Below, piece after piece: positions 5,076 to 46,283 of a DNA stretch of 56,061 nucleotides. How positions within the stretch are numbered: position 1 is the first letter of the stretch; the number at the start of each line of letters is the position of its first letter. The stretch is from Candidatus Margulisiibacteriota bacterium (lineage in GTDB: Bacteria > Margulisbacteria > Riflemargulisbacteria > GWF2-35-9 > DYQY01). The DNA is taken from the NCBI GenBank assembly GCA_028706105.1, contig JAQWCF010000002.1, forward strand, positions 1 through 56,061, in the 5' to 3' direction. Under the pieces are notes generated by a model. It ran no database searches, was not told the origin of the DNA, and saw only the letters and a program-made list of their open reading frames with translations. Position numbers and translations under genes: made by a program.

Positions 5076-7448
5076 TTATACCAAAATATTCATCATTAGT
5101 GCTAGTTCTTTTAATAGCGTATTGTTTTGGTCTGCTTTGTGAAGAAGAAAAGCTTTTGTTTCAGCAGAAGATCTGTTGAATTTAATTTCCAATTTTTCAT
5201 AGATGCCAAGGAAAGATATTGCAATATTGATATCTTTAGGGTCTTTGCCTTTTTCTATTTTGCTTATTAATGAATTTAGGTATTTTTCTAAATAAGCACG
5301 AGTTTCATTAACATTTAGATTTAGATGTAGGCTATGACTAAGTTTAATTATTCTTAGTGCTGGCTTTATGTTTTTGTTATTCCAGCTAGTTATTTCTTGG
5401 ATTTCACTTAATAGTTTTGCTGACATGATTATCTCAATTGCTGATTTTATTTCAGTAGGAAGATTTCCGCCCATTCTAACAGTTTCTTCTATTAAATCTC
5501 TAAAGCCAGTATATAATTTATTGAGGTCTTTGTTCAGTCTATTGGTTTTCTTAGACCAGAGTATTTTCATGATGTCAGAGCTTTCTTCAAAGTTAAGGTC
5601 TATCATGCTTAGTGTCTTCTGATAATTATTTTTAATTATTTCTGTTGAGTTATTTGGATCATCCAGTAGTTCTTTTTTGATGGAATTTAGGTCAAGAATC
5701 GTTTTACTGATAGATGTTTTGACTTGCCCATTTTTTTCTGAGAGTAAGGCTGAGTGTTCTGTTGTTTTCCCAGTATAGATATTCATTATTGAACAGTTAA
5801 GTGCTCTAAAGGTGGTATCTTCGTTTTTAAAAGTAAGATCATTAATAGGACTGACGGTATATAGATACACTTCTTGTTCTTTAATTTTATTGGTTAGATG
5901 TGCTTTGACTATAAACTGGTTAATAGCCTTTTCTCTAGTTAATTCGTAGGGTTTTATCCATTTTTTGTAAATCGCATCTCCGTCATGCGCAGAATTAATG
6001 TTGCTTTTAGCTTCTTTCAAGTAAGCAATAAGAACCTTTTCTAAATCTACTTTAGTATGTTGTTGTCCATAGTAAATAGCAGCATTGGCATATTTAATGA
6101 TTTGAACAGTTTCTATTCCAGATATCTCAGAGAAAAACCATCCACAACTAGTAAACATTAGTTGACTAAATCTCTGACTTTCTAATAATTCTAATATTTT
6201 TACTTTTTGTTCATCGGTAAGAGATCCTTTGGCGTTTTTTTCAAAAAACTTTTCACTAGACCAGCTACCGTGAAAGACGAAGTAATAATCATTTCTTGCT
6301 TTTTCGATGTTAGCTAGCAGAGGTGTCGCTTCTTTTTCGTAAGTTTCCCATAATAAATCTCGAAGCGCATTAAGTCCTTCTCTCAGTGGCTTTCTCCATT
6401 CTTGATTCCACCCAGCGCCACCACCAGTGCTACAGCCACAATTTTCTTTCCATCTTCCAACGCCATGGACACAGCTCCATGCAGTGCCTTCATGTTTAGT
6501 TCCTTCTTTAAGTACTGCTTCAGAGATAGGGGCAAATCTTTCCAGAAAAGCACCATAATTAATTTGTTTCATGTTGTACTCTTTGGCAAGATGTTTAAAA
6601 AAGTAGGAAAGGCACATGTCCCCAAACGGTTCATGGTGTCCGTAGCTTTCGCCGTCAGTAGAGGCTGTTACTAGCGTAGGTCTGCCTTGGTTGGGTTTAG
6701 CTGCTGCATCTAGCCTCTCTGCAAAAGTGTGAGCGTCTTTTAGGAGATGCTCAAAGCTGATAGCTGTTGAGATTGGGGCATCATAAAAAAAGACATCTAA
6801 GTATTTTTCTTTGGTTTCATCAACAAAAACTCGGTAGGGTTGAGTTGGGTCAACAGTTCCATTAGAAACATTTATCCATTCATTAGAGAAATATGTTTTT
6901 ACCTTTTCTGCTTGGAAGGGAGATAGCACTGTGAACTTAATTCCATTAGCTATTAAAGCTTTTACTGTCTCCATATTGATAGCAGTTTCTGCAAGCCACA
7001 TACCCTCTGGGTCACGTCCGAAGTGTCTTTTAAAATCAGCTATTCCCCATTTGATTTGTGTTTGTTTGTCTCTTTCGTTGGCTAAAGGCATGATTATATG
7101 GTTATAAACCTGGGCAATAGCATTACCGTGTCCGTTGTTGTTTTCTTTGCTAATTTCATCTGCTTCAACTATTTTTTCATATGTACTTTTGTCGTTATCG
7201 TAAATCCAGTTCATTAGAGTGGGCCCGACATTGAAGCTTAAGTATTGAAAATTATTAATAATATCAACTATTTTTCCATGAGGTGAAAGAATTCTTGATG
7301 AGGTGTTTGGTCGATAACATTCATCGTTAATTTTTTCATTCCAATCGTGATAAGGGAACGCGCTGTCTTGTCTTTCTATTTTATTAAGAAAGGGGTTCTC
7401 TCTCGGTGGTTGATAAAAGTGTCCGTGAATGCAAATATACTTGTTCAT
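5076..7448 (-). CDS. glycoside hydrolase family 57 protein (alpha-glucan-active, long DUF3536-type C-terminus)
   Basis: 790 aa. The N-terminus YICIHGHFYQPPRENPF is typical of this GH57 subgroup. A GGGGGG SD precedes the ATG. Confidence 0.8.
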   Translation of the reverse strand: MNKYICIHGHFYQPPRENPFLNKIERQDSAFPYHDWNEKINDECYRPNTSSRILSPHGKIVDIINNFQYLSFNVGPTLMNWIYDNDKSTYEKIVEADEISKENNNGHGNAIAQVYNHIIMPLANERDKQTQIKWGIADFKRHFGRDPEGMWLAETAINMETVKALIANGIKFTVLSPFQAEKVKTYFSNEWINVSNGTVDPTQPYRVFVDETKEKYLDVFFYDAPISTAISFEHLLKDAHTFAERLDAAAKPNQGRPTLVTASTDGESYGHHEPFGDMCLSYFFKHLAKEYNMKQINYGAFLERFAPISEAVLKEGTKHEGTAWSCVHGVGRWKENCGCSTGGGAGWNQEWRKPLREGLNALRDLLWETYEKEATPLLANIEKARNDYYFVFHGSWSSEKFFEKNAKGSLTDEQKVKILELLESQRFSQLMFTSCGWFFSEISGIETVQIIKYANAAIYYGQQHTKVDLEKVLIAYLKEAKSNINSAHDGDAIYKKWIKPYELTREKAINQFIVKAHLTNKIKEQEVYLYTVSPINDLTFKNEDTTFRALNCSIMNIYTGKTTEHSALLSEKNGQVKTSISKTILDLNSIKKELLDDPNNSTEIIKNNYQKTLSMIDLNFEESSDIMKILWSKKTNRLNKDLNKLYTGFRDLIEETVRMGGNLPTEIKSAIEIIMSAKLLSEIQEITSWNNKNIKPALRIIKLSHSLHLNLNVNETRAYLEKYLNSLISKIEKGKDPKDINIAISFLGIYEKLEIKFNRSSAETKAFLLHKADQNNTLLKELALMMNILV

Positions 7449-7750: not shown

Positions 7751-9001
7751 TTAAATCCCTACACGAATAATGCTTGCAACGTCTTTGATGCAAGACAAGT
7801 CTTTGATCTGTTCGATTGCTTTGTTTTTATTGCCTTCTTTGATGGTGTGTGTGACTATAACTAATTCAGCATCTTCTCCCGCACCTCTTTGGATTGCTTC
7901 TTTGATACTGATTTTCATTTTAGCAAAAATACCACTTATTTCCGCAAGTACGCCTGGTTTGTCTTCTACAAGTAGTCTGATGTAATACTTAGAGACAATT
8001 TCATCTTTAGGTAGAATGGTTATCGTTTTCTTTTTCTCTGTGCCATAAGCTGTTCCGTTGATAATATTTAGTAGGTCTGCCCAAACAGAACCTGCAGTTG
8101 GGATGCTTCCTGCGCCTCGTCCATAGAACATACTTTCTCCAGTAGCATCACCTTCTACGTAGACAGCATTGAAAACATCGTTAACCGCAGCAAGTGGGTG
8201 AGTGTTGTTAAGTATAACTGGATGTACTCTTAGCTCTAAGCCCTTGTCAGTATTTCTAGCAATTGCTAGGAGTTTAATGCTGGCATCAAGGTTTTTGGCA
8301 TAGTTTATATCTTTTGCAGATATTTTGGTTATGCCTTCCATTAAAATTTGTTCAATATTTATGTCAGATTGAAAGGCAATAGACGCTAAAATAGAGAGTT
8401 TGTAGCAACTGTCCATTCCTTCTACATCAGAGGAAGGATCAGCTTCTGCATAACCAAGTTTTTGAGCCTCTTTTAGCACCACGGCATAGTCAGCGTTTTC
8501 TTTTTGCATCTTAGTTAGAATAAAGTTGGTTGTTCCGTTAAGGATACCAACTATTTCTTTAAAGTTGTTTGGCGAAAGTGAATCTTTTAGATTGTTAATA
8601 ATAGGAATAGCTCCGCCAACAGATGCTTCATAGAGTAATGAAACGTTGTTCTCCTCAGCTAGCTTAAGTAGTCCCTTGCCATATTTTGCTAAAACAAGCT
8701 TATTAGCTGTTACTACATGCTTTTTAGCTTTAAGTGCAGATTCGATAATTGTTCTGGCAGGTTCATCTCCACCGATAAGCTCAATAATAATGTTTATTTC
8801 TGGGTCAGCAATAAGTTCTTTAAAGCTGTTTGTTTTCTGAAAGGAAGACAAATCATAAGGACAGCGACTAAAGTCTAAGTCACAGATGGTCTTTAGCTTA
8901 AAGTGTTTTTTGGCGTGAGAGTTAAGCTTATCAAAGTTGTTTTGATAAAGAGCGATAACGCCTGAGCCGATTGTTCCTGTTCCGATAAGTCCGATATTCA
9001 T
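7751..9001 (-). CDS. hom: homoserine dehydrogenase
   Basis: 416 aa with the GxGxxG N-terminus, the NGTTNFILTKM and LGYAEADPSSDVEG motifs, and a C-terminal ACT-like domain. Confidence 0.92.
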   Translation of the reverse strand: MNIGLIGTGTIGSGVIALYQNNFDKLNSHAKKHFKLKTICDLDFSRCPYDLSSFQKTNSFKELIADPEINIIIELIGGDEPARTIIESALKAKKHVVTANKLVLAKYGKGLLKLAEENNVSLLYEASVGGAIPIINNLKDSLSPNNFKEIVGILNGTTNFILTKMQKENADYAVVLKEAQKLGYAEADPSSDVEGMDSCYKLSILASIAFQSDINIEQILMEGITKISAKDINYAKNLDASIKLLAIARNTDKGLELRVHPVILNNTHPLAAVNDVFNAVYVEGDATGESMFYGRGAGSIPTAGSVWADLLNIINGTAYGTEKKKTITILPKDEIVSKYYIRLLVEDKPGVLAEISGIFAKMKISIKEAIQRGAGEDAELVIVTHTIKEGNKNKAIEQIKDLSCIKDVASIIRVGI

Positions 9002-9007
9002 ATATTT

Positions 9008-9013
9008 ATTATA
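9008..9013 (-). promoter_or_regulatory. -10 box TATAAT 6 nt upstream of the hom ATG (leaderless-type)
   Basis: The minus strand reads TATAAT-aaatat-ATG. Confidence 0.45.
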
Positions 9014-9047
9014 AAGCTAAAAGCTAAAAGCTGAAAGCCTAAAGCTT
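9013..9047. repeat. heptamer microsatellite (AAAGCTN) x5
   Basis: The sequence reads aaagcta aaagcta aaagctg aaagcct aaagctt. It lies directly upstream (on the minus strand) of the hom -10 box. Confidence 0.8.
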
Positions 9048-9068
9048 AATGTTTATTTGTTTAGTTGG

Positions 9069-9635
9069 TTATTTGGTTTGTTCTAAAGTAGTTATTCTCT
9101 TACTGTTATGCAATATCTTGAGTGAATTAAGGTCTGTTTGAGCTCTTTGTTCTTCTAATTTTTTTCTGAAAGCCACAAAATGTTCGTCTTGGAAGAATAG
9201 TTTATCTCTGACTGCTTGAAATTCACCCATATATTTTTCCATTACCAAGTTTACAGCATTATGAACAATAGTATTAGCGTCATCTTTTGTTAACATGTTA
9301 TCCATTATAAATTGGATATTGTCATTGGTGTCATCAAAATTGTAGTCCATTTTATCCAGTCTTTTTTTAACGTGAGACATGTCTTCCTTTAGGATAGAAA
9401 CATCTTCTTTGATCACAGCGACATCTGTTTTAAGTACAGCGACATCTGTTTTAAGTACAGCGACATCTGTTTTAAGTATAGCAACATCTGTTTTAAGTAT
9501 AGCAACATCTGTTTTAAGAGTAGAATTATCATTTTCAAGATAAGACACACTTGTTTTAAGACATGAAAAGTCTTTAGAAGTTTCTTCTTTTACAATGGTT
9601 CTTATCGTTGCTATGTCGTTGGTAGTTAATGTCAT
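9069..9635 (-). CDS. coiled-coil protein with tandem heptad repeats (LKTDVAx)n
   Basis: 188 aa. The repeat block reads TLKTDVAILKTDVAILKTDVAVLKTDVAVLKTDVAVIKEDVSILKEDMSHVKK. I recognise no family. Confidence 0.7.
   Translation of the reverse strand: MTLTTNDIATIRTIVKEETSKDFSCLKTSVSYLENDNSTLKTDVAILKTDVAILKTDVAVLKTDVAVLKTDVAVIKEDVSILKEDMSHVKKRLDKMDYNFDDTNDNIQFIMDNMLTKDDANTIVHNAVNLVMEKYMGEFQAVRDKLFFQDEHFVAFRKKLEEQRAQTDLNSLKILHNSKRITTLEQTK
9377..9525. repeat. in-frame 21-bp tandem repeat, about 7 units (5 near-identical at 9421-9525)
   Basis: The unit is acatctgttttaagtacagcg, with copies at 9421, 9442, 9463, 9484 and 9505. Degenerate copies lie at 9377-9420. Confidence 0.9.
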
Positions 9636-9747
9636 TGTAGAGGGAATATAACATTGTTTTTTATTTGTGTCAAATAACTATTCGTCAATTATTGTTAATC
9701 TTAAAAAGATTACGTCTGTTACCTATTAAAGTAAAAGGGAAAAGGGG

Positions 9748-10008
9748 GAAAGTTGTGAGAGTGGCTTTAGGAATCCATCCGCTCAAATGAGTAGTGAGAC
9801 CCCCTCAGTCAGACTAAGGCTGACAGCTCCCCACTAAGGGGGAGCGAATAGTTCAGTGCATTTCAGAAGACAGAAACTTGTGAGAGTAACTTTAGGAATC
9901 CATCCGCTCAAATGAGTAGATTGTTTCAGAATGGGGAAAGTTGTGAGCACCTTCCTTTGACAAGGAAGGATTAGGTGTTAAGGGGCGTTGAGAGTAACTT
10001 TAAATACA
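9748..10008 (+). repeat. dispersed direct repeats of a ~47-nt unit (gaaaSttgtgagagtRRctttaggaatccatccgctcaaatgagtag)
   Basis: Near-identical full copies lie at 9748-9794 and 9873-9919. Partial copies lie at 9935-9951 and 9985-10008. Confidence 0.75.
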
Positions 10009-10021
10009 TTACATTGTTTAG

Positions 10022-10027
10022 TAGAAT
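10022..10027 (+). promoter_or_regulatory. -10-like TAGAAT 6 nt upstream of the DUF559 gene ATG (leaderless-type)
   Basis: The plus strand reads TAGAAT-tgagct-ATG. Confidence 0.4.
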
Positions 10028-10033
10028 TGAGCT

Positions 10034-10414
10034 ATGCGCGATAAGTTTACGTTTATTACTTATGAAAAAAGATTATTAGCTTTTTCTAGGATTAATAGAA
10101 TAAACCCGACTCTAGCAGAGGCTAGAATGTGGGATATATTGAAAAAAGATTGTTTTAAGGAATACAGATTTCTAAGACAGAAACCATTATATAAATTTAT
10201 TGCTGATTTTTATTGTAGTGCACATTTGCTTGTTATAGAGGTTGATGGAGATTATCATGATGACAATAAAGAATACGATAAACTAAGGGAAGATATCCTT
10301 AGAGAAAGTTTTGCAATTGAAATAATTCGCTTCACCAATGAAGAAATCTTGAAATACCCCGATCTTGTCATTAAAAAGTTGCTAAAAAAATTACAGCAAA
10401 TAAACCCTTCTTGA
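10034..10414 (+). CDS. DUF559 / Vsr-like endonuclease domain protein
   Basis: 126 aa. The segments ...NPTLAEARMWDILK...YRFLRQKPLYKFIADFYC...LVIEVDG..H match the DUF559 pattern. Confidence 0.8.
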   Translation: MRDKFTFITYEKRLLAFSRINRINPTLAEARMWDILKKDCFKEYRFLRQKPLYKFIADFYCSAHLLVIEVDGDYHDDNKEYDKLREDILRESFAIEIIRFTNEEILKYPDLVIKKLLKKLQQINPS

Positions 10415-10587
10415 TAAAGAAGGGTGGCGACATTGTAGTGTTTCAGCAGTTGTTGCTGTGTTACGCCGGGAAGATTTGATTAAAAAGTTACTAAAAAAAT
10501 TACAGCAAATAAACCCTTCTTGATAAAGAAGGGTGGCGACATCGTAGTGTTTCAGCAGTTGTAGCTGTGTTACGCCGGGAAGATTTG
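10370..10587 (+). repeat. 109-bp tandem duplication (2 copies, 3 mismatches) that includes the last 15 codons and the stop of the DUF559 gene
   Basis: Copy 1 is 10370-10478 and copy 2 is 10479-10587. Each copy holds the hairpin cccttctt-gata-aagaaggg plus a ggcg...cgcc-closed second hairpin. A diverged third copy lies at 10665-10738. Confidence 0.9.
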
Positions 10588-10754
10588 ATTTTAAAAATAG
10601 TATGTTTAAGATAGAAAATATTGGGCAGAATATAGATAGTAGATAGCAAATAGTAAATAGTGAACCCTCTCTGTCAGGAGAGGGTGGCGATATTGTAGTG
10701 GTTAAAAAGTTCTCGGTGTCTTACGCCGGGTGAGGTTAGCGAAAGGATAAAGAT

Positions 10755-13700
10755 ATGACATCAGTTGAAGGAGCACCGAAGTTTTATTTTAAACAAGTGG
10801 CTAAAGGCTTTGATGCAACAACTAGTGGAGCATTAAGAGCTGTTCCAATTTCTGCTGCTAAAATATCAGCCTTGCTTAACGATACATTTAATCCTTCAGT
10901 CCAATTAAATGAAAATTTAGTTGGGCAATTAGAAGGTATTAGCGTGATTTCTGCTAGTTCTTTAGTAGGACCAAGTGAATCAGTTTTAGATAGATTATTG
11001 GATGGTGTTTCTCAAATCCAAGGAGATAGTCATTTTACGAAGGACGGACTTGAAGCTGTTAAGGAAGCATTAAATATATGGCTTACTGCTAGTGATGATA
11101 CATCAAAGGCAACTGCATTGGAAACACTTCAGGGTTTTTTAAAAGATGGAGGTAAAGTAGGGGCTAAAGATGTTTGGGTTATAGATGCAGTTAGTTCGGA
11201 TGCATTGCCATCAGGAATTATATCGTATGCAGAATTGATTATGTTTCAGAAAGAACTGAAGATGGATGTCTCAACACCACCAGCAGTCAAGCCAGATGCA
11301 CCAGCAGCAGTCAAGCCTGAAGCATCACCAGAAATATCACCTGACGATGAAAAAGTTTTAATATCAGTTTTGTCACTTCAAGATTTTGTTATGCGAGCAA
11401 AAAATCCGAGTGACGCAAAAGCGCTTGATAAGTTGCCATTAGATAAGTTGCCATCACAAATCAGGCAGTTATTCACTGGTAATGAAGACATTAGTGATAC
11501 AGCTAAAGTAGCAATGTTAAGGATGCTTGCTCTTGCTGGGTATTTTGGTGAAAGTACAGATTATGAGGGTGAGTCAAAGGGTGTTTTTAAGGAGGGCGGA
11601 CAAGATGTGTCTATTTCTTGGGCAGGCGGTACAGCCTTTAGAACAGAATTTTTTAAACCTATTGAAGGTCACGAGTTGCCACACGTTGACAGAAACTCGT
11701 TAATAAAAGCAATAACTGCTATGTGTCGTTCTTTTGAATCAGTGAAGATGAGAGGTAGTACTGTTAATTTTGAAAAATTTTCTAAAGATTTTATTTCAGC
11801 CTCTGCTTATTCTATTACAAGAAGGAGCACTAACTCCGCTGCTGCTGCTGACCATTTAGCCCGACAATTTAGTTCTGGTGGCCACGCAGTAACTGCAGAC
11901 CAGATGACAAGTTTGGCAAATAATTTTGCTATGGTAACATTACCATTGTCACCAACGGCTCCATTCCGACTTTTTGGTCCAGGGGTTCAATTAGTGCTGA
12001 AGGGCGAGGAGTTAAAGATTTCAGTTCAAGGTGATAACAATGTTTTTTATGAAGTTGTAAGTTTTAAGAAAGCTGACTGGGATAAATTTTTGACATTTAT
12101 GACTCAGAAGAATCCTCCACCAAATGAAAAAGAGAAGGAACTCTTGTTCCTTAATATACTTGAAATGTTGGCACAAGGCGACTTAAATGAAATGACTATT
12201 TATAGAGATGAGGATGTTAAGGAAACAGAGGATATAAACTTAGTAGAAACTCAGGCGAAAGCAACAGCTTTGAAAGCTGCGTTAGCGTCAGTAAAGGGAG
12301 TGGCGACGTCACAGGAACTTTATGACGGATTGAATCGTGAAGGCGTAAATCCTGCATCGCTAATGTATTGGGATGCAGGTAATCCTGCTGTAGCAGCTAA
12401 TGATAAAGCGAACCCTCCTGTCTTAGCTAAAGCGGCTATTCCTCCTTCATGGAAATCAGTATTTACGGGTAACGCAATTGCTGGATATGCTTTGGCTACA
12501 AGCTTTAATGCTGGCACAAATTATCAGTTCAGTATTGAAGGATATACTCCAACGGGAGAAAAGACTACTAAAACTGAGTCATACAAGTTTGAACTTCCCC
12601 AAACGTTTACCAATGCTATTAATGCGTCAACAGCACCACCACTAGCAGCGAGACAAGCAGGAGCAACGGGTGGAGCAGCAGGAACAACTGGAGACACTAA
12701 AGAACCGCCAGCAGATGCAAGTGGAAGACTAACGCTCAGAGAGAGTAATGCTCCCTTATTCCCTGGTATGAAGGTGAAGATTGCTGATTTGGTAGGTGGA
12801 GAGGTTGGTGCTTATAATTTTGATGGGAGTACGTCTTATTCTATATTAAACGGTGAGACAGAATTGACTATTCCTGCAAATGCTACTAAGTTAACTTTTG
12901 CAAAAACAAAAAAGGACGAAACTGATTCCAGTATAACAACGATAGATGATTCATCACCGATTGTTTCGATAGAAGTCAAGAGTGCTGATGCTATAGCCCC
13001 AAAAAGTATGCTTAGTTCAGCCCTTGGTACACCAGAGAATGTGGCAATATACTTGAATGGTCAAATCAAACAGATAACTCCAATTAACATTGCAGAAATT
13101 ATACCTGCCGCAATGCGTAAACTTTATAATGCTGGAAAACTTGTTAAAGAGACGCCAGCGGTATTGGCTTTGGTTTTAGGTAAAATAGATTATGCTAACA
13201 CTGATGTAGCTACTAGTTTTGTGAACGCACTAAATGGATTATCTCCGGATGACTTAGTAAAAGTTTTTATAGCGTTGGATTATGCAAATGGCGTGGAAGC
13301 CTTAAAAACCTTGGTGGCTAATTTCATTGCAAATATGGATTCCGGTAAAAGGAATGAGTTAATTAAGAAAATTAGTGATACTTGGAGTGTAGACGATTTT
13401 TATGATATAGGAAAAAGACTGATAGATATTGTAGATAAAGCTGTTTTTGTTGAAGGCCTTTTGACGGATAACCATGATTTCTCAAAGGTAGCATATTTAA
13501 TGAAAGGGATTTGTGGAGAAGAGTATAATAATATGGTAATTGCTAAGTTGAATGAAAATATAGAGGCAAAGGGGTTGTTGGCTTTAATTAGGGTTGGGGG
13601 ACTGGGTGATAATTTACAGCCAAACATACTTAAGAATAAACAGTTGTATAACCCTGAATTTCTTGGGTCTGCTTCAGGGCGGCTAGTTTTGAAGAAACTG

Positions 13701-38003: not shown

Positions 38004-39473
38004 ATGAATGCTAAAATTATTTCTTTAGCATATCCTTCTGGAATTGGTTCGCTTTTGGATCAAGAACTTAAGCCAATAATCAATTTTTTCCAAGAACAAA
38101 TATCTATAGGTAATAGTGTATTTCAGCAAAGAATTGATGAATTGCAAAAAATGCTTAAAGGTTTAAGAAGATGCGATAATCTTATATTTCGCGACTTTTT
38201 ATCTACAGTAGATATGTTTGATGATAGACAGGAAATTTCCTTGCTTAGTATTAAAAGAGGATTGAGTATAGTTGAGTTCAGACAATACATATCAGATTTT
38301 GCTAATTTGTCTTCGATAGATATTGATTCTTGGGTTAATGATTTTTGTATAACTCAAGATATTGTAAATTCTGATGGTAATGTCTACAAAGCATGTACTT
38401 TAAGAAGTGATTTAAGTGAGGATGATTTAAGTAGAGCAGATACTCTGATACCAGAGTTATATAATTACTTATTAAACATAATAGAAGAGACCGAGGATTA
38501 TTTGTATTATAGGGAAGATATTAATGAATCTAAGATAAACATCGACACAGATGTGTTTAAAGCTTTAATATTATCAGAACCGGTTAAGCCCGTTTTCGGT
38601 CAGAAAGCTATATTTTCTTGGAATCATACTCATCCTACTAGGAGTCAAGAAGTTCAAAGTAGATATTCCAAAAGAAGTGGTTATTTTTTTTCTGTTGCTG
38701 ATTTGAAAGTTGTTAATGAAGTTGAAAGAAATGCAGAAGTGTTTTCTGCTTATGGAGCTTCTTTTGTTGAGAGGGATAACTATTACGAAGATATCAATGG
38801 TAACAAAGCAAAGCTTACAGTTAGTCCGCAATATATTAGCTATGTCGCTCGTCGTTTAGCATTTTTGGATGCATACAGATATATTTCTAAAGTAAGTAAA
38901 TTATCATCAAATGTGTTGATTAGTGTTGCTTTAGAGATAGCAAATTATTATGTTGGAAATAGAAAACAAGAGGATGTACAGGGTTTATTAGAAAAGTATA
39001 ATTTAGAGCCAGAACTTATTGAAAAATTTAAGAAGAAAGTTTTTGATAGTGGCGAAACCTCAGAGTTGAATGATTTTTTTGGTATGCATGCTAATTATCC
39101 TGAAGTAGCGGCATTAAAGGAAGGCCATGTTTCTTATTTTGTTAATAGGTCAATGATTAATAGAATGATGGACCCAAAACGAACAGAACTTGGCGATATG
39201 AAGTATCATGAAGCGATAGAGTTTATTAAGCTTCGTTCATCAAAAACACTAAGACTTATCCTTTGTGCGAAATATGATTTGTCAGACCTTTTCATTAGAG
39301 ACAGAAAGTTCCTCGGAAATAGAATAGTTAGTGTTTCAGCTAAGCAAACGTATATGCCTTTGCTTAAGGAACTATGGAACTCAAAGAATCTTACTGAAGC
39401 GAGAGAAGCTAGGGATAAGATTTTGAAGGCCTTTTATGAGCTTGATAAATCAGGCGAGTTGTACGAAGACTAA
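38004..39473 (+). CDS. hypothetical protein (489 aa) with a weak JAMM-like HTHP...SVAD motif
   Basis: ORF track. It starts 3 nt after the stop of the 561-aa gene. WNHTHP lies at aa 206-211 and SVAD at aa 230-233. The spacing is longer than in canonical JAMM proteins. Confidence 0.65.
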   Translation: MNAKIISLAYPSGIGSLLDQELKPIINFFQEQISIGNSVFQQRIDELQKMLKGLRRCDNLIFRDFLSTVDMFDDRQEISLLSIKRGLSIVEFRQYISDFANLSSIDIDSWVNDFCITQDIVNSDGNVYKACTLRSDLSEDDLSRADTLIPELYNYLLNIIEETEDYLYYREDINESKINIDTDVFKALILSEPVKPVFGQKAIFSWNHTHPTRSQEVQSRYSKRSGYFFSVADLKVVNEVERNAEVFSAYGASFVERDNYYEDINGNKAKLTVSPQYISYVARRLAFLDAYRYISKVSKLSSNVLISVALEIANYYVGNRKQEDVQGLLEKYNLEPELIEKFKKKVFDSGETSELNDFFGMHANYPEVAALKEGHVSYFVNRSMINRMMDPKRTELGDMKYHEAIEFIKLRSSKTLRLILCAKYDLSDLFIRDRKFLGNRIVSVSAKQTYMPLLKELWNSKNLTEAREARDKILKAFYELDKSGELYED

Positions 39474-39499: not shown

Positions 39500-40165
39500 A
39501 TGACTACAGCATTAATGATACTTTCTGGTGGACAAGACTCAACTACTACTTTGTTTTGGGCTAAGAAGAAGTTTGGCTCAGTAGAGGCCATTACCTTTGA
39601 TTATGGACAGCGACACAAAGTAGAACTTGAATCAGCCAAGAAAGTTGCTGAAATAGCTGGAGTCCCTCATAAGTTAGTAAGAGTAACAGCACTTGAGCAG
39701 TTAGCTGATAATGCCATGATTAAAGACGAAGAAATTGTTATTAATAAGACAACAGGGCTTCCTACAACCTTTGTTCCTGGAAGAAACCTAATTTTTGTAA
39801 CACTTGCTGCTGGGTATGCTTACACTAAAGGGATTAAGGATTTAATATTAGGAGTCTCTCAGGTTGATTACAGTGGCTATCCAGATTGTCGCAGAGAAAC
39901 GATGAGGTCATTAGAAAAGACGATTTCTTTGGGTATGGATTTTGATTTTACTATTCATACACCTCTTGTAGATAAAGACAAAAAAGATACAGTCCTTATG
40001 GCAAAAGAGCTTGGCGTATTAGATGTTATGAAATACACCCACACTTGTTATAAAGGTCAACGACCTCCATGTGGAGAGTGCCCTGCATGTAAGCTTAGGG
40101 CAAAGGGATTCGCTGAAGCAGGGATTATAGACCCTCTTTTTATCTTAGTCACAAAGATTATTTAG
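39500..40165 (+). CDS. queC: 7-cyano-7-deazaguanine synthase
   Basis: 221 aa with the SGGQDS PP-loop and the C-terminal CGECPACKLRAKGF zinc cluster. The atypical tail ...DPLFILVTKII is consistent with a replaced 3' end. Confidence 0.92.
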   Translation: MTTALMILSGGQDSTTTLFWAKKKFGSVEAITFDYGQRHKVELESAKKVAEIAGVPHKLVRVTALEQLADNAMIKDEEIVINKTTGLPTTFVPGRNLIFVTLAAGYAYTKGIKDLILGVSQVDYSGYPDCRRETMRSLEKTISLGMDFDFTIHTPLVDKDKKDTVLMAKELGVLDVMKYTHTCYKGQRPPCGECPACKLRAKGFAEAGIIDPLFILVTKII

Positions 40166-40171
40166 TGGCTC

Positions 40172-40215
40172 CCTTATCAAGGAAGATGGCCTTCGTTAGT
40201 GCGACTTAGGGTTAT
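40172..40215. repeat. dispersed hairpin-plus-tail element copy (ctccctt-atc-aaggaag + atggccttcgttagtgcgac)
   Basis: Imperfect member of the family seen at 1007, 10405, 10514 and 10665. It lies at the left edge of the TA cassette. Confidence 0.4.
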
Positions 40216-40239
40216 ATCCTCCATTCTTCCAGTTATCCA

Positions 40240-40269
40240 TTGAACTAGTGAGCAAATGAAAGTTATAAT
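40240..40269 (+). promoter_or_regulatory. TTGAAC-18 nt-TATAAT promoter ending 6 nt before the MNT ATG (leaderless-type)
   Basis: The -35 is at 40240-40245 and the -10 at 40264-40269, followed by attgta-ATG. Confidence 0.5.
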
Positions 40270-40275
40270 ATTGTA

Positions 40276-40578
40276 ATGATACAAGTTATTCCTTTAACAG
40301 ATGCAGAGATTATTAGTAACGTGAAAGAAATTATTATCTCTGAGTTGCCTGAAGCAAAAGCTTATTTGTTTGGTTCTCGTATTAATGGAAAAGCAAAGAT
40401 AGTGTCGGATTTTGATATATGTATTAAAATAGATAAAGAGATTCCTGCAGTTAAGTTGTTTTCAATAGAACAAAAAATTGATAATTTGGATACTTTAAGG
40501 ACTATAGATATCTCTGATTATCATCGTTTGAATGATTTTTTTAAAAGTAACATTGATCAAACTGGAGTATTAATATGA
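40276..40578 (+). CDS. minimal nucleotidyltransferase (MNT) antitoxin, HI0073-like
   Basis: 100 aa. FGSRINGKAKIVSDFDICI matches GSxxxGxxxxxSDxD. It overlaps the HEPN gene by 4 nt (ATGA). Confidence 0.85.
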   Translation: MIQVIPLTDAEIISNVKEIIISELPEAKAYLFGSRINGKAKIVSDFDICIKIDKEIPAVKLFSIEQKIDNLDTLRTIDISDYHRLNDFFKSNIDQTGVLI

Positions 40579-40964
40579 ATCAAGAAATAAATAATCAATT
40601 AGGTAATTTTACAGATTCTCTTCAACGACTTAAGGAAGTAATGCAAAGAGATATTAATGAAGATAGCATAGTTTTAGATGCTGCAATTCAACGTTTTGAA
40701 TTTACTTTTGAAAATGCTTGGAAGTCTATAAGAATGGTTATAAAAGATTATGGAGAAGATGCAAATTCACCTAGAGAAGCAATTAAAAAAGCATATAGAA
40801 TGGGTTATATAGAAGATGAAGCAGTTTTTCTGGAACTTCTTATGGCAAGAAACCTAACTAGTCACACTTATAATTATCCGATAGCTATTAGTGTTTATAA
40901 TAATGTTAAGAAGAATATGTCGGTTTTTGATAAACTTTACGATAAACTAAAATCGCTGATTTGA
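40575..40964 (+). CDS. HEPN-domain toxin, HI0074 nucleotidyltransferase substrate-binding family
   Basis: 129 aa with QRFEFTFENAWKSIR and the Rx4H motif RNLTSH. Confidence 0.85.
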   Translation: MNQEINNQLGNFTDSLQRLKEVMQRDINEDSIVLDAAIQRFEFTFENAWKSIRMVIKDYGEDANSPREAIKKAYRMGYIEDEAVFLELLMARNLTSHTYNYPIAISVYNNVKKNMSVFDKLYDKLKSLI

Positions 40965-40966
40965 TT

Positions 40967-41023
40967 AAACTTAGAGCTAAAGGTTTTGCAGAAGCAGGAA
41001 TTACGGATCCATTAATAGAATGA
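40967..41023 (+). pseudogene. queC: displaced queC 3'-end remnant (KLRAKGFAEAGITDPLIE*)
   Basis: It translates to a peptide matching queC aa 198-213 at 15 of 16 positions, although 11 of the 16 codons differ at the third position. It ends in TGA at 41021-41023. Confidence 0.75.
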
Positions 41024-41164
41024 CAAATGTCAAAACTCAAATGTCAAATAAATCAGATAATGACAAATAATTAAATAAATAGTTGAAATTGAATTTTTCT
41101 TGATTTGAGATTTAAGTATTTATTTGGATTTTGTCATTTGTCATTTGGGTTTATTATAGAATTT

Positions 41165-41201
41165 TCCTTTCACTTTCCACTTTTCACTTTTTACCTTTCA
41201 C
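41165..41201. repeat. tandem TTTCAC-type 7-8-nt repeats upstream of aspS
   Basis: The sequence reads cctttcac tttccac ttttcac tttttacc tttcac. Confidence 0.7.
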
Positions 41202-41203
41202 TA

Positions 41204-41209
41204 TATACT
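41204..41209 (+). promoter_or_regulatory. -10-like TATACT 7 nt upstream of the aspS ATG (leaderless-type)
   Basis: The plus strand reads TATACT-atagcct-ATG. There is no SD. Confidence 0.4.
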
Positions 41210-41216
41210 ATAGCCT

Positions 41217-43004
41217 ATGCTTAAAAGAACCATAAATTGCGGAGAACTTAGACGGTCAGACATTGGTAAGGAAGTTATTCTTAACGGATGGGTTAATCGT
41301 CGTAGGGACCATGGTGGAGTAATTTTCCTAGACCTTAGAGACAGAAGTGGTATTGTCCAGATAACTTTCGATTCTTCCAAGGCAGGTATGTCCCATCAAC
41401 TTGCTGAAAGCATCCGAAGTGAGTATGTTCTAGCTGTTAAAGGTCAAGTTATTACGCGTTCAGACGCAACTGTTAATCCTAATATGCCTACTGGTGAAGT
41501 AGAAGTTGAGTGTACAATAGTAGATATATTAAATACTAGTAAAACACCAGTTTTCAGTGTTGCTGATGATGATCAGGTGGATGAAACATTAAAACTAAAA
41601 TATAGATATCTGGATTTAAGGAAAGAAACCTCGTTAAATAAATTCAAAATACGACATAATGTTACAGCTGCAATAAGAAATCATTTAAACAAAGAGGGGT
41701 TCTATGAAGTAGAAACTCCAATACTTAATAAGAGTACCCCAGAAGGTGCTAGAGATTACTTAGTCCCAAGTAGGGTTAATGTTGGTAAGTTTTTTGCTCT
41801 TCCTCAATCACCTCAGCTATTCAAGCAATTATTAATGGTTAGTGGTTTTGAAAAGTATTATCAAGTAGCTAAATGTTTTAGAGATGAAGATCTTCGCGCA
41901 GACCGTCAGCCAGAGTTTACACAGATAGACTTAGAGATGAGTTTTGTTGAACAAGATGATGTTATTGCTTTAACCGAAGGAGTCATCAAAGAAGCTTTTA
42001 GAGTTATTGGTGAAGAAGTTGCTCTTCCTATAAACAGAATTACCTATGATGATGCCATGAATTTTTATGGTAGTGATAAACCTGATATGCGTTATGATTT
42101 AAAATTAGTGGATATTACAGATATTTGTAAGAATATTGAATTGAAGGTTTTTAACCAGATTGCTAATGGTGGAGGTATGGTTAAAGGCTTAAATGTTAAA
42201 AATGGTCATTCTCTAAGTAGAAAGAATATGGATGATTTAATCACTTTTTCTCAAAAACATGGAGCCAAAGGAATGGCGTATATAACAGTTAGACCAGAAT
42301 CGCCAGATGATATAAGTAAATATGAATACACCTCACCAATTACTAAGTTCTTTAATGCTGATCAACTTAAGCAAACCATGGAACAATTTGATGCCAAACC
42401 GGGCGATGTTTTAGTTTTTATCGCGGACAGTGTAGTTGTTGCAAATGATGTATTAGGTAGGCTAAGGTTGGAAATTGCAGAATTGTTGAAGATTGTACCA
42501 AAACAGAAATATTCATTTGTTTGGGTGACTAATTTCCCTATGTTTGAGAAGTCAGAGGGAAAGCTAAAAGCATTACATCATCCTTTTACTAAGCCAGACA
42601 TTAAGGATTTATCAGAGTTAGATGCTGACCCTTTATCTTTATATTCAATAGGTTATGATATCGTTCTTAATGGTTGCGAGCTAGGTGGTGGGTCAATTCG
42701 TATTCATCAGGCAGAGATGCAATCGAAAATTCTTGAATTACTCGGCATTGGACCAAAAGAAGCAGAAGAGAAGTTTGGTTTCTTATTAAGTGCCTTAGAG
42801 TATGGCGCTCCTCCACATGGTGGCTTAGCTATAGGCTTAGACAGAATGATAATGTTAATGACTGGCTCTGCTTCAATCAGAGATGTTATTGCTTTTCCTA
42901 AAACACAAAGTGCTGGTTGTCCGCTTTCTGACGCTCCGAGTGAAGTTTCTGCTGAACAGCTCAAAGAGCTAGGCATTAGACTACGCCAAGCTTCTAAAGA
43001 ATAA
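41217..43004 (+). CDS. aspS: aspartate--tRNA ligase
   Basis: 595 aa with class II aaRS motifs (FRDEDLRADRQPEFTQID; GGGSIRIH; GLDR), an N-terminal OB fold and the bacterial insertion domain. Confidence 0.95.
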   Translation: MLKRTINCGELRRSDIGKEVILNGWVNRRRDHGGVIFLDLRDRSGIVQITFDSSKAGMSHQLAESIRSEYVLAVKGQVITRSDATVNPNMPTGEVEVECTIVDILNTSKTPVFSVADDDQVDETLKLKYRYLDLRKETSLNKFKIRHNVTAAIRNHLNKEGFYEVETPILNKSTPEGARDYLVPSRVNVGKFFALPQSPQLFKQLLMVSGFEKYYQVAKCFRDEDLRADRQPEFTQIDLEMSFVEQDDVIALTEGVIKEAFRVIGEEVALPINRITYDDAMNFYGSDKPDMRYDLKLVDITDICKNIELKVFNQIANGGGMVKGLNVKNGHSLSRKNMDDLITFSQKHGAKGMAYITVRPESPDDISKYEYTSPITKFFNADQLKQTMEQFDAKPGDVLVFIADSVVVANDVLGRLRLEIAELLKIVPKQKYSFVWVTNFPMFEKSEGKLKALHHPFTKPDIKDLSELDADPLSLYSIGYDIVLNGCELGGGSIRIHQAEMQSKILELLGIGPKEAEEKFGFLLSALEYGAPPHGGLAIGLDRMIMLMTGSASIRDVIAFPKTQSAGCPLSDAPSEVSAEQLKELGIRLRQASKE

Positions 43005-43092
43005 AAACAGTCCGCCGAGTGAGGCTCGGACGTAAAATGGACACAAAACAGCAAAAATGCATATATAATGGACTCGAATAAGCCAATTTTTA

Positions 43093-43121
43093 TTGTATAG
43101 CCTATTGTTGAGATGTATAAT
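43093..43121 (+). promoter_or_regulatory. TTGTAT-17 nt-TATAAT promoter for the glycogen cluster
   Basis: The -35 is at 43093-43098 and the -10 at 43116-43121. An AGGTAGGTGA SD follows before the ATG at 43146. Confidence 0.45.
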
Positions 43122-43145
43122 CTGTATACAAGGTAGGTGAGTAAC

Positions 43146-43439
43146 ATGAAAAAAGTAGTAAAAAAGGTACAAAAAAAAGAAGTGAAAAGAAAAATTCAGT
43201 TTAAATTTTATGCACCTCAGGCTCAAGATGTTTCTCTTGTTGGTACCTTTAATAAATGGAATCCAATTAAAAAGAAAATGAAAATGAACGAAAAGGGCGA
43301 GTGGTTGACTAGAGTAATTTTGTCAGAAGGCGAGCATCAATACAAATTCATCGTCGATGGTGAATGGATAAACGATCCAGGAGCAGAAAGATTTTTAGAA
43401 AATGGGGTTGGCGGCATTAATAGCGTCAAGGTCGTATAG
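43146..43439 (+). CDS. glycogen-binding CBM48 / AMPK-beta-like (E-set) domain protein
   Basis: The segment FKFYAPQAQDVSLVGTFNKWNP...EGEHQYKFIVDGEWINDP is read directly. I moved the start to the ATG at 43146 (SD upstream) instead of the GTG at 43137 in the track. Confidence 0.8.
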   Translation: MKKVVKKVQKKEVKRKIQFKFYAPQAQDVSLVGTFNKWNPIKKKMKMNEKGEWLTRVILSEGEHQYKFIVDGEWINDPGAERFLENGVGGINSVKVV

Positions 43440-43456
43440 ACCGAAAGGGGTTCAAA

Positions 43457-44674
43457 ATGATATATGAAGAGGAACAGCTAAATAAATTAACTAAATTCGA
43501 GTTGCTGGATATTGCAACAGAGTTGGATGTTAAATATAGAACAAGAATGGCAAAACCAAAGTTGGTTGCCTCTATACTTGAGGAAATTGCTAAAAAGAAA
43601 AAAGACTTTGACCCCAAGACTGAAAATATTTTGGATGAACAAGAGAAGAGTCGTCAGCTTGACGCGGATTCCGCTAAAGATAGAGAGGCTGTTCATGCCT
43701 CCAAGTATAATAAGGCAGAGCCTAAGACTAAGGCGGCTATTAAAGTTGAAGACAAAAAAGAAGAAACTGTTGTTGAACAACCACAAGAAAATACTTATAA
43801 CAAATATGATACGATGAATGACTCTTATCATGTACCTCATGCATATGGTGACGATAAAGTAATTGCTATGGTGGTGGATCCTACTCATATACATATTTAC
43901 TGGGAAACAACACAAAAAACGCAACAAAGATTACTTCAAGAAGCTGGTTTAGCTGGAAGTGGCTTTGATTTATTGTTGAAGTTGTATGATGTAACGGATA
44001 TTGACTTTAATGGCGCTAATGCTTGGAGTGAGCAGGAACTTAACGTTGGTTATTCTAGAAATTGGTATTTCTCTGTCACGGCAAATAGGAGCTATTGTGC
44101 TGAAATCGGCATGAAGATACATGCTAGTGGTAAGTTTATCCGTATTGCTAGGTCTAACATTATTGAAACACCTAGAGATTCTGTAAGTGATTTTTATGAT
44201 GAAGAATGGATGATGATTGATTTTAATAATAATAAGAATATTTATAGTGAGTTATATCGACTTTCTGGTGGATATGATATGAAGAGATATCAATTAAATT
44301 CAGCTACTGTTACAGAAAGAGTTGATAGACCTTATGATTTTAAGCTTCCAACAGTTAGCTTAAGCTCAGAGTCTTTGTCTTCTCATTCCTTGTCTTCACA
44401 CTCGTTAGTGAAGAATCAGAAGGATTTTTGGTTATGGGTAGATACGGAACTTATTGTTTATGGTCAAACCAAGGTAGACGCTAAAGAGTTAACTATTAAT
44501 GGTGAGGCTATAAAACTTGATAAAGAAGGAAGATTTCGATTGCATATGGCTCTTCCTAATGGGGAATATCCGTTCCAAGTGCGTGCTGTCTCGAAATGTG
44601 GTGAGATGGTAGAAGAGGTCACTCCAAAAGTGATTCGATTTATGGAACAGGAAAAAGTCAGGACGAAAGGATAA
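43457..44674 (+). CDS. DUF4912 domain protein with Rho-N/SAP-like N-terminus
   Basis: 405 aa. LTKFELLDIATELDV is the Rho_N-like part, and VIAMVVDPTHIHIYWE is typical of DUF4912. It neighbours a GH57 gene, as is common for this family. Confidence 0.75.
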   Translation: MIYEEEQLNKLTKFELLDIATELDVKYRTRMAKPKLVASILEEIAKKKKDFDPKTENILDEQEKSRQLDADSAKDREAVHASKYNKAEPKTKAAIKVEDKKEETVVEQPQENTYNKYDTMNDSYHVPHAYGDDKVIAMVVDPTHIHIYWETTQKTQQRLLQEAGLAGSGFDLLLKLYDVTDIDFNGANAWSEQELNVGYSRNWYFSVTANRSYCAEIGMKIHASGKFIRIARSNIIETPRDSVSDFYDEEWMMIDFNNNKNIYSELYRLSGGYDMKRYQLNSATVTERVDRPYDFKLPTVSLSSESLSSHSLSSHSLVKNQKDFWLWVDTELIVYGQTKVDAKELTINGEAIKLDKEGRFRLHMALPNGEYPFQVRAVSKCGEMVEEVTPKVIRFMEQEKVRTKG

Positions 44675-44681
44675 TTTAATT

Positions 44682-46283
44682 ATGGAAAAAGGATATTTAG
44701 CACTAGTACTGCATGCTCATTTGCCATACGTACGGCACCCAGAGTATGCCTCTTTTTTAGAGGAAGATTGGTTTTTTGAGGCAATTACAGAAACGTATAT
44801 ACCGCTACTTAATATGATGGATAGGCTTGTTAATGATGGGGTAGACTTTAGACTTACTATGTCTATAACTCCTCCTCTTGCTGGGATGTTTTCTGATATG
44901 GTGTTACAGGATAAATATATTCACCATATTGAACAATTGATAGAGCTTAGTGATAAAGAAATTGATCGCACTAAGTATCTTCCTCAGTTTCATGAAACAG
45001 CCAAAATGTATAAAGGTGTTTTTATGAATAGCCGCTATGTTTTTGTGGAAAAATATAAAAAAAATCTCATAAATGGTTTTAAATATTTTCAGGACATAGG
45101 CAAGTTAGAAATTATAACTTGTACTGCTACTCATGGGTTTTTGCCTTTGATGGAAAGTAATCGTGAAGCAGTTCATGCTCAGGTCAAAGTAGCAACGGAA
45201 GATTATAAGAGACATTTCGGAAGAGGACCAAAAGGAATTTGGTTAGCTGAATGTGGTTATAATCCAGGCGATGAAGAAGAGTTAAAGAAGGCAGGAATTA
45301 GTTTCTTTTTTGTGGATACTCACGGAATTTTGCATGGTAATCCAAGACCAAAATATGGAGTTTTTGCCCCTGTTTACACTAAAAATGGAGTAGCTGCTTT
45401 TGGTCGTGATATGGAGTCCTCTAAGTCAGTATGGAGTGCTGAAGAAGGTTATCCAGGAGATCAAAGATATAGAGATTTCTATCGAGATGTTGGTTTTGAT
45501 TTAGATATGGAATATATCAAAGATTATATTCACCCAGATGGGATTAGAAAACATACGGGCATTAAGTATTATAAGATTACTGGTAAAACAGATACTAAAC
45601 AGCCTTACAATCATTTCCAAGCAGAAGCTGCAGCAGCAGAACATGCCAGTAACTTTCTTTTTAATAGAGAGAAGCAAGTAGAGTATTTGTATGATGTAAT
45701 GGGTGGTAAAAAGCCTATAATTATCTCTCCTTATGATGCTGAATTGTATGGTCATTGGTGGTTTGAAGGTCCTAAGTTTTTAGAGAATCTTATTCGTAAG
45801 GCCTATTATGATCAAGATACAGTAAAACTGATAAGCCCTTATGAGTACTTACAAGATAATCCTACAAATCAGGTTGTTACACCATCTATGTCTAGTTGGG
45901 GAAATAAAGGTTATAACGAAGTTTGGCTAGAAGGAAGCAATGATTGGGTATATCCTCATTTGCATAAAATAGCTGACAGAATGGTTGAGCTAGCCAATAA
46001 GTTTACCTATGCTGACGATGTGTTAAGAAGAGCGTTAAATCAGGCGGCTAGAGAAGTGTTGCTTGCACAGAGCTCTGACTGGGCATTTATAATGAAAACA
46101 GGAACTATGGTGGAGTATGCTAATAGAAGAACAAAGAGTCATGTCACAAGATTTAACAATCTGTACGATATGATATTGGGGAATGGCATCGATACTAATT
46201 ATTTAGCTGATCTGGAATCTAAGGATAATATATTTCCAAACATTGATTACACAGTGTATCAAACAGCAGATCTTAAGAGATAA
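44682..46283 (+). CDS. GH57-type 1,4-alpha-glucan branching enzyme
   Basis: 533 aa. The N-terminus GYLALVLHAHLPYVRHPE and the overall length match GH57 branching enzymes. Confidence 0.85.
   Translation: MEKGYLALVLHAHLPYVRHPEYASFLEEDWFFEAITETYIPLLNMMDRLVNDGVDFRLTMSITPPLAGMFSDMVLQDKYIHHIEQLIELSDKEIDRTKYLPQFHETAKMYKGVFMNSRYVFVEKYKKNLINGFKYFQDIGKLEIITCTATHGFLPLMESNREAVHAQVKVATEDYKRHFGRGPKGIWLAECGYNPGDEEELKKAGISFFFVDTHGILHGNPRPKYGVFAPVYTKNGVAAFGRDMESSKSVWSAEEGYPGDQRYRDFYRDVGFDLDMEYIKDYIHPDGIRKHTGIKYYKITGKTDTKQPYNHFQAEAAAAEHASNFLFNREKQVEYLYDVMGGKKPIIISPYDAELYGHWWFEGPKFLENLIRKAYYDQDTVKLISPYEYLQDNPTNQVVTPSMSSWGNKGYNEVWLEGSNDWVYPHLHKIADRMVELANKFTYADDVLRRALNQAAREVLLAQSSDWAFIMKTGTMVEYANRRTKSHVTRFNNLYDMILGNGIDTNYLADLESKDNIFPNIDYTVYQTADLKR

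Follow-up and report, generated by a model that had tools for sequence, protein, structure and literature searches.

The 56,061-nt stretch analyzed here (the window) is contig C9 of a metagenome-assembled genome of Candidatus Margulisiibacteriota (G000; 1.93 Mb, 147 contigs). At the junction of its genes queC (7-cyano-7-deazaguanine synthase) and aspS, a toxin-antitoxin (TA) cassette, composed of a minimal nucleotidyltransferase (MNT) antitoxin gene and a HEPN toxin gene, lies between two copies of the queC 3' end that encode almost the same peptide with different codons. This synonymous-only divergence proves that DNA from two lineages contributed to the locus. The locus is probably a natural scar, left when an ordinary HepT/MntA cassette was captured by a homology-anchored, recombinase-free process. 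The way in which TA cassettes move without a transposase or integrase is poorly documented, and the locus is a clean natural record of such a movement.

Two diverged copies of the queC 3' end

The queC gene (39500-40165, forward strand) encodes an intact product of 221 aa (Pfam QueC, E = 1.3e-74; 92% amino acid identity with the conspecific protein P0002), and its last 24 codons are made up of copy A and an atypical tail. Copy A (40091-40138, forward strand) comprises the in-frame codons 198-213 and encodes KLRAKGFAEAGIIDPL. Copy B (40967-41023, forward strand) encodes KLRAKGFAEAGITDPLIE followed by a stop codon and has no gene body upstream; the part matching codons 198-213 spans 40967-41014. 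The HEPN stop codon occupies 40962-40964, and copy B starts 2 nt past it; position 40966 may already be homologous to queC.

When the copies were aligned, 34 of 48 bases (71%) and 15 of 16 residues were identical. The 14 base differences fell at third (12), first (1) and second (1) codon positions, giving 11 synonymous codon differences and one replacement (ATA Ile vs. ACG Thr), with Nei-Gojobori values of pS ~0.99 and pN 0.07. No simulation out of 300,000, each with 15 randomly placed substitutions, kept the number of amino acid changes at one or below. This synonymous-heavy pattern indicates that A and B were working queC ends in separate lineages almost until they were brought together, and it excludes a duplication that diverged in place. 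The initial annotation had described the duplicated end, with the same residue and codon counts, and had argued that it was not an ordinary target-site duplication; both statements were confirmed. The longest run common to A and B was 8 nt (GAAGCAGG) and lay in the interior, and alignment of both copies revealed no identical core at their left edges.

The duplication was specific to this genome among those scanned. A degenerate LRAKGFxEAG pattern gave matches in 9 of 146 phylum genomes, with a double match only in the window genome, and the reversed control pattern gave no match in the same 146. Six-frame scans of 28 related loci detected no second queC-end peptide.

Copy A is followed by the tail FILVTKII and a TAG stop (40139-40165, forward strand). 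The tail extends 8 residues past DPL, compared with 1-4 residues in the relatives, none of which has a counterpart to it, so that it is indeed atypical, as first annotated. Tail and the ~100 nt after it have no counterpart in any relative. The spacer at 40166-40239 (forward strand) holds a weak, degenerate CCCTT...AAGG hairpin (40171-40182); BLAST of the genome found no other copy of this spacer. A copy of a dispersed hairpin element had been proposed at 40172-40215, but the fold was weak (z = -0.6) and alignments to the hairpin elements of relatives (L053, L062, L064) did not exceed shuffles, so that the copy is degenerate at best.

Empty sites and the stranded queC end

In nine related lineages queC is followed directly by aspS. 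These were the three genomes of the same genus (G001-G003), one of the same family (G004), and five metagenome lineages (labeled L; L053/L054, L056/L057, L061, L062/L063 and L064), of which L053 is a contig conspecific with G000. The gap between the queC stop and the aspS ATG was 48-205 nt in these lineages vs. 1051 nt in the window, which identifies the long gap as an insertion. The comparison of empty sites that had been proposed at the outset therefore upheld the annotated insert between queC and aspS. The two copies are separated by 828 nt that hold only the MNT and HEPN genes. As first noted, no integrase accompanies the insert: no recombinase or transposase gene was present from 35.8 to 56 kb, a 21.6-kb giant gene fills the left side, and neither the 26 kb on the left of the insert nor the 15 kb on its right contained a recombinase. 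Five tyrosine-recombinase matches were located on other G000 contigs.

Other cassettes occupy the same side of queC in further lineages of the order. A tenth lineage (L055, 2241-2725) carried a different two-gene cassette, DUF4160/DUF2442, in the queC-aspS gap; an antitoxin-ParE pair was found downstream of queC in genus g4 (G006), and an antitoxin-ParE pair together with a class II HEPN(PF05168)-MNT pair in G010 (coordinates of the other queC-downstream cassettes: L011 2414-3451 and L010 874-1378). No second queC end was found at the L055, G006 or G010 cassettes. Within the order, then, four different cassettes sit downstream of queC, and this side of the gene is a landing pad.

Copy B, the spacer behind it and the aspS promoter (40967-41216) matched, over their full length, the stretch between the queC end and aspS of L061 (85% identity), G003 (79%) and G002 (78%), and the joint of stop codon and spacer was the same (GAATGACAAATG) in all four. 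The shared joint and the end-to-end alignment indicate that copy B once ended a queC directly before this spacer; on this alignment copy B is a stranded relic of a queC end. The 'GACAAATG' spacer itself (41024-41173, forward strand, 150 nt) forms a long imperfect hairpin (fold z = -4.8), follows the queC stop at this joint in G003, G002 and L061, and was 92% identical to that of L061 and 84% to that of G003. A partial copy was present on G000 contig C72 (7386-7433). The spacer may be a small element, either mobile or conserved for its function, that contributes the queC stop with its first bases. The identity of 92% with L061 was observed although the flanking queC and aspS were only 78-81% identical.

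Attempts to identify the foreign copy by similarity were not discriminating. The initially proposed comparison of each copy with its orthologues was run, and A and B each matched every known queC end at 30-39 of 48 positions; each was 77-79% identical to the conspecific target. The argument that A/T-ending codons mark the downstream copy as the host's own was uninformative, since the GC content at third codon positions (0.38 for A, 0.06 for B) was for both within the range of 16-codon windows of the genome (0.276 ± 0.114).

Exchange of the whole allele between strains

The conspecific contig L053 has the empty site and was compared with the window along its length. Mismatch density was 0.8% over 42701-45140 (99.2% identity), 5.2% over 41761-42700, 14.3% over 41174-41760, 15.2% over queC nt 351-639 (first mismatch at nt 371, none between nt 282 and 370), and 3.9% over queC nt 121-350; further upstream of queC divergence increased again, into hypervariable genes. 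The density steps were significant (Fisher p = 1.5e-5 and 6.5e-44), and other relatives had no matching change in constraint at these steps. The divergent allele block thus delimited (39870-41760, no strand assigned) extends from the 3' part of queC through the cassette, copy B and the spacer into aspS, of which it takes in the 5' 545 nt. A block of ~1.9 kb that is ~15% diverged, set in a background that is under 1-4% diverged, indicates that homologous recombination has exchanged the A-cassette-B allele in its finished form. Most simply, this would have been a single event with crossovers in queC and in aspS that either brought the allele in or took it out of the other strain. Same-genus genomes were also tried for placing the left recombination boundary, but G001-G003 share only 77-80% DNA identity with the window and gave no resolution; the boundary is drawn from L053 alone.

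The downstream copy had been annotated as the displaced native end. It is a stranded queC end attached to its spacer, as that annotation held, but 'native' is relative here because the whole block at 39870-41760 is ~15% diverged from L053. As the allele was exchanged as a whole, copy B is native to the spacer-aspS arm and not necessarily to the genome background.

Relatives of the cassette at other loci

Cassette relatives were found at four other loci, with amino acid identities of 95% (L058), 81% (L059), 77% (G004, contig C8) and 59% (G012). The L058 relative had ~93% DNA identity and came from the same sample as the empty-site contig, and the L059 relative adjoins an insertion sequence transposase gene. 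In the three relatives whose DNA was read (G004, L058, L059), homology to the cassette ran from about the -35 box to the HEPN stop only; the flanks were unrelated, and none of these three contained a queC fragment. The queC piece is therefore not a constant part of the cassette. The earlier proposal of an element that carries its own surrogate gene end is thus supported only in part: the two ends come from different lineages, but the relatives at four loci (DNA read for three) lack the queC piece and no identical core was found. A donor or second carrier beside queC was not found in a phylum scan with HEPN, a search of 5.8 billion proteins, or a metagenome scan, which recovered the cassette relatives elsewhere.

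The L058 relative is a 761-nt contig (1-761) in which HEPN has 95% amino acid identity and MNT is cut at about codon 68, where it is fused in frame to what appears by eye to be a fragment of an iron-containing alcohol dehydrogenase. The fusion is either a real rearrangement or a chimeric assembly. When the L058 flanks were compared with G000, only dispersed repeats matched.

Further scars in the same genome

All open reading frames (ORFs) of at least 100 aa in G000 were searched for C-terminal peptides that recur downstream in the same orientation. Of the 21 hits, most were tandem paralogues or antisense frames of the repetitive giant gene; besides queC, two scars and one small duplication remained.

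The scar on contig C72 (5250-7314; locus L084, 1751-3815) follows a PMT_2 glycosyltransferase gene (5923-7314, minus strand). After this gene comes a 421-nt insert, in which an MNT gene (5534-5848) is accompanied by a HEPN gene reduced to its first ~17 codons; the insert is succeeded by a 252-nt relic of the PMT_2 end (5250-5501) that is 95% identical and overlaps the stop codon of a convergent DUF2079 gene. In G003 an intact MNT-HEPN pair sits at the same PMT_2 gene end with no relic; between C72 and G003, DNA identity was 88% for MNT and ~72% for the PMT_2 ends. The scar on contig C7 (7104-11683; locus L083, 1605-6184) follows an SbcC-like ATPase gene (8585-11683, minus strand), after which come a 51-aa zinc-ribbon gene, a 380-aa DUF4062 gene and a 128-nt relic. 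The relic is 87% identical to the SbcC-like end, with many of the differences synonymous, and stands ahead of an AAA_15/OLD-type ATPase gene. The genes of this region probably form a defence island. As relatives carry different downstream genes, they provided no clean empty site for the C7 scar. The small duplication lies in the window, where the last 45 nt of a 126-aa gene (10034-10414) and the hairpin CCCTTCTTGATAAAGAAGGG with its TGA stop (10369-10414) recur 64 nt downstream (10478-10523) with one mismatch.

The orientation of the cassette relative to the relic at C72 is opposite to that at queC, which favors a generic recombination process over an element with defined ends. The three scars in G000 and the four cassettes downstream of queC suggest that homology-anchored capture beside conserved genes is a routine route by which accessory modules enter the small genomes of uncultivated bacteria. 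A more far-reaching extension is that small TA/defence cassettes in this lineage travel as integrase-free units, with the host gene-end fragment from one insertion anchoring the next, loop-out as a circle while the repeats are similar, and synonymous divergence then locking the cassette in place; this we consider doubtful. If it were true, addiction modules with a host gene-end anchor would represent a general, RecA-dependent way of moving.

Proposed origin and alternative explanations

The account we favor, with moderate confidence, is that the cassette (-35 box to HEPN stop, ~40240-40965) entered the queC-aspS junction without a dedicated recombinase, by one-sided, homology-anchored illegitimate recombination, and was then spread by homologous recombination. 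In the first step, DNA of a diverged lineage, in the order queC 3' part, tail, spacer, MNT and HEPN, would have paired with the resident queC by homology on the gene side, and an illegitimate join 57 nt ahead of the resident stop codon would have closed the other side. With the incoming end (copy A and FILVTKII) queC would have stayed intact, and the resident end (copy B), with its own spacer and aspS, would have been left downstream as a dead relic. An illegitimate joint upstream of the resident stop codon accounts for the partial duplication. The second step is recorded by the divergence block: ordinary homologous recombination in the queC and aspS sequence on either side carries the finished A-cassette-B allele from one close strain to another. 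A foreign end on an intact gene, a displaced old end, and the lack of both a recombinase and a core are together the footprint expected of homology-facilitated illegitimate recombination. On the anchor side, queC has a foreign ancestry in its 3' part, beginning at nt 371 (vs. L053), which is compatible with a homologous anchor.

Several observations weigh against this account. No donor lineage with queC, tail and cassette in the absence of copy B was found in the phylum, protein and metagenome searches. The left crossover and any microhomology at the illegitimate joint are not readable from the sequence, and the joint lies 1-2 nt past the HEPN stop, tighter than a random illegitimate join usually is, which is unexplained. 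Homologues of ComEC (E = 2.7e-40) and DprA (E = 2.2e-73) are present, but such homologues also occur in non-competent control genomes. Lastly, the G000 and L053 alleles were equally distant from all other lineages, so that the polarity of the block exchange (gain here or loss in L053) is undecidable.

Two alternatives invoke integration of a circular or mobile element. In a Campbell-type integration, a circle with the last ~57 nt of queC and the cassette, which could arise by looping out between repeats in a donor, would enter by a single homologous crossover in the queC end, and the gene-end fragment would be the working part of a RecA-dependent, integrase-free unit. Repeat-cargo-repeat with the gene kept intact is the product of a single crossover, the 252-nt repeats at C72 with 95% identity would support both crossover and later excision, and Furuta et al. 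proposed a comparable cycle for restriction-modification (RM) units (PMC2853133). The fragment shared at queC, however, is 48-57 nt long at 71% identity with no run above 8 nt, far below what RecA-mediated exchange needs, its differences extend across the repeat from end to end without a switch point, and the cassette relatives at other loci have no queC piece; we regard such an integration as unlikely. Slightly less likely still is site-specific integration, into the queC 3' end, of an element whose attP carried a surrogate end, as is the case for e14 and phage 21 at icd, and which has decayed to the TA pair or was mobilised by an integrase elsewhere. The foreign, synonymously recoded end and the stranded native end are the exact picture of icd/icdC, and the five tyrosine-recombinase matches on other contigs could fit an integrase acting from a distance. 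Against it stand the lack of an integrase in or near the insert, of an identical core at the repeat edges and of a queC-like arm in the related cassettes; moreover, copy B begins within 2 nt of the cargo's HEPN stop, and decay would thus have had to delete the rest precisely, and the other two scars have unrelated targets, repeats of 252 and 128 nt, and cargo in opposite orientation.

The remaining two alternatives appear very improbable, to a like degree. Under one of them, the queC end was duplicated locally when the cassette inserted or afterwards, and the copies then diverged where they lay; this has a precedent in published long target duplications, which begin near-identical (PMC2853133), and the C72 scar resembles that state. 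An untranslated relic, however, could not gain 11 synonymous changes and one replacement (0 of the 300,000 trials), and a later replacement of copy A would again need a cassette-bearing donor or an illegitimate join. An assembly artefact, by which the contig joins two co-occurring strains, is conceivable in a metagenome assembly of 147 contigs with a conspecific empty-site strain in another sample; but assemblers join at shared words, neither cassette junction shares sequence with queC or the other copy, and the cassette has the make-up of a whole operon, with both motifs and a promoter in the style of the host.

Comparison with known systems

The locus reveals no new molecular machine; the type of scar, insertion with long target duplication, has already been described and is found here with TA cargo and diverged repeats. 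What the locus adds is an empty site in the same species with mapped recombination boundaries, a flanking gene piece that is absent from the three cassette relatives read, and three scars in one genome.

Homology-facilitated illegitimate recombination combines a homologous anchor on one side with a non-homologous join on the other (PMC3240628, PMC5361080). The passages of these articles on illegitimate recombination draw on de Vries & Wackernagel 2002, Prudhomme et al. 2002, and Meier & Wackernagel 2003. A role for it was proposed in effector/immunity displacement in the Vibrio type VI secretion system (T6SS) and in the 'C-terminal displacement' of Rhs and contact-dependent inhibition (CDI) systems (PMC5361080). 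As in those cases, the incoming DNA gives a new 3' end and the old end is pushed downstream as an orphan; here, in contrast, the footprint is a natural one, the gene encodes a housekeeping enzyme rather than a polymorphic toxin, and what is left of the old end is a dead stub of 57 nt, unaccompanied by an immunity gene.

Insertion of RM gene complexes with long target duplication was reportedly described by Nobusato et al. in 2000 (Gene 259:99). Such insertions of RM units had repeats of >30 bp that often span stop codons, carried no mobility genes, and occurred mostly in naturally competent species (PMC2853133). The queC locus shares with them an addiction-type unit, direct repeats >30 bp (48-57 nt), an insert of <20 kb (828 nt) that contains no other mobile-element gene, and a target gene left intact; an empty site with a single repeat was present in nine lineages including L053, and elsewhere the motif occurred once per genome. 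It differs in that the cargo is a TA pair and not an RM unit, and in repeat identity, which is 71% here, nearly all differences being synonymous, vs. 90-100% in the published cases. Repeats at this identity with mostly synonymous differences indicate that one copy originated in a diverged donor instead of being duplicated in place.

In E. coli, e14 and phage 21 integrate into the icd 3' end and leave the pseudogene icdC (Hill et al. 1989; PMC13626634). The resemblance lies in a host gene that is functional with a foreign, mostly synonymously different end, and in a native end stranded beyond the insert. The e14 element, however, is a 15-kb prophage with an integrase, an identical att core and SOS-induced excision, whereas the insert at queC measures 0.83 kb and has no integrase nearby; there was no identical core at the repeat starts, and the three cassette relatives read did not carry the surrogate end.

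The MNT/HEPN cassette

The cassette begins with a promoter, TTGAAC-18-TATAAT (40240-40269, forward strand), whose -10 box ends 6 nt before the MNT ATG (leaderless geometry). The MntA-type antitoxin gene (40276-40578, forward strand; 100 aa) matched the Pfam families Polbeta (E = 3.3e-13) and NTP_transf_2 (E = 5.5e-7), and the HepT-type toxin gene (40575-40964, forward strand; 129 aa), whose start overlaps the MNT stop (ATGA), matched NTase_sub_bind (PF08780, E = 3.2e-28). The closest PDB relatives were HI0073 and the MNT 8xeh for the antitoxin, and TTHA0048, the HEPN toxin 8xdj and HI0074 for the toxin. Class I HepT/MntA systems are defined by a PF08780 or PF01934 HEPN protein beside a PF01909 MNT protein, with the motifs RX4HXY and GSX10DXD (PMC7641770). 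The domain pair and both motifs were found here, RX4HXY as R92-NLTS-H97-T-Y99 and GSX10DXD as G33-S34-RINGKAKIVS-D45-F-D47. By its domains and motifs the cassette is an ordinary member of the very common class I HepT/MntA (type VII) family. Family membership implies that HepT would be an RNase toxin and that MntA would neutralise it by AMPylating the tyrosine of RX4HXY. The pairs SO_3166/SO_3165 of Shewanella (PMC7641770) and HI0074/HI0073 of Haemophilus have the same domain pair (PF08780 with PF01909/PF18765), MNT first and overlapping genes. Compared with the known class I systems, membership is assigned here by sequence only, and the promoter has the leaderless geometry typical of the host.

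Genome setting

The local gene order is a giant gene (7185 aa), genes of 125, 561 and 489 aa, queC, MNT, HEPN, aspS and a glycogen cluster. The aspS gene (41217-43004, forward strand; identified from Pfam and synteny) is, in all relatives, the conserved right neighbour of queC. The 489-aa gene upstream of queC (38004-39473, compared with L053 1-1528) had ~50-80% DNA identity between strains that are 99-100% identical from 42.7 kb on; the region beside the giant gene is hypervariable within the species.

A -10 box 6-7 nt before the ATG, with no Shine-Dalgarno sequence, was observed for queC, the MNT gene, aspS and the MNT gene of C72 (39489-39502, 40264-40278 and 41204-41219 in the window, and upstream of 5534 on C72). 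This suggests that leaderless transcripts are common in the organism.

In L053 (2195-2250), L062 and L064, queC ends with SLS or SPS and a stop. A double-hairpin repeat element (z = -3.2), also present elsewhere in G000 (C117, 12438-12487), encloses these terminal codons together with the stop. The variable QueC tail past DP[IL] seems to be set by whichever repeat element adjoins the gene.

A second HEPN-MNT pair was noted on G000 contig C79 (4976-6431), with the genes at 5720-6431 just after tandem units of ~110 nt that are interrupted by N bases. Some of the repeat stretches on C79 resemble a tRNA T-arm.

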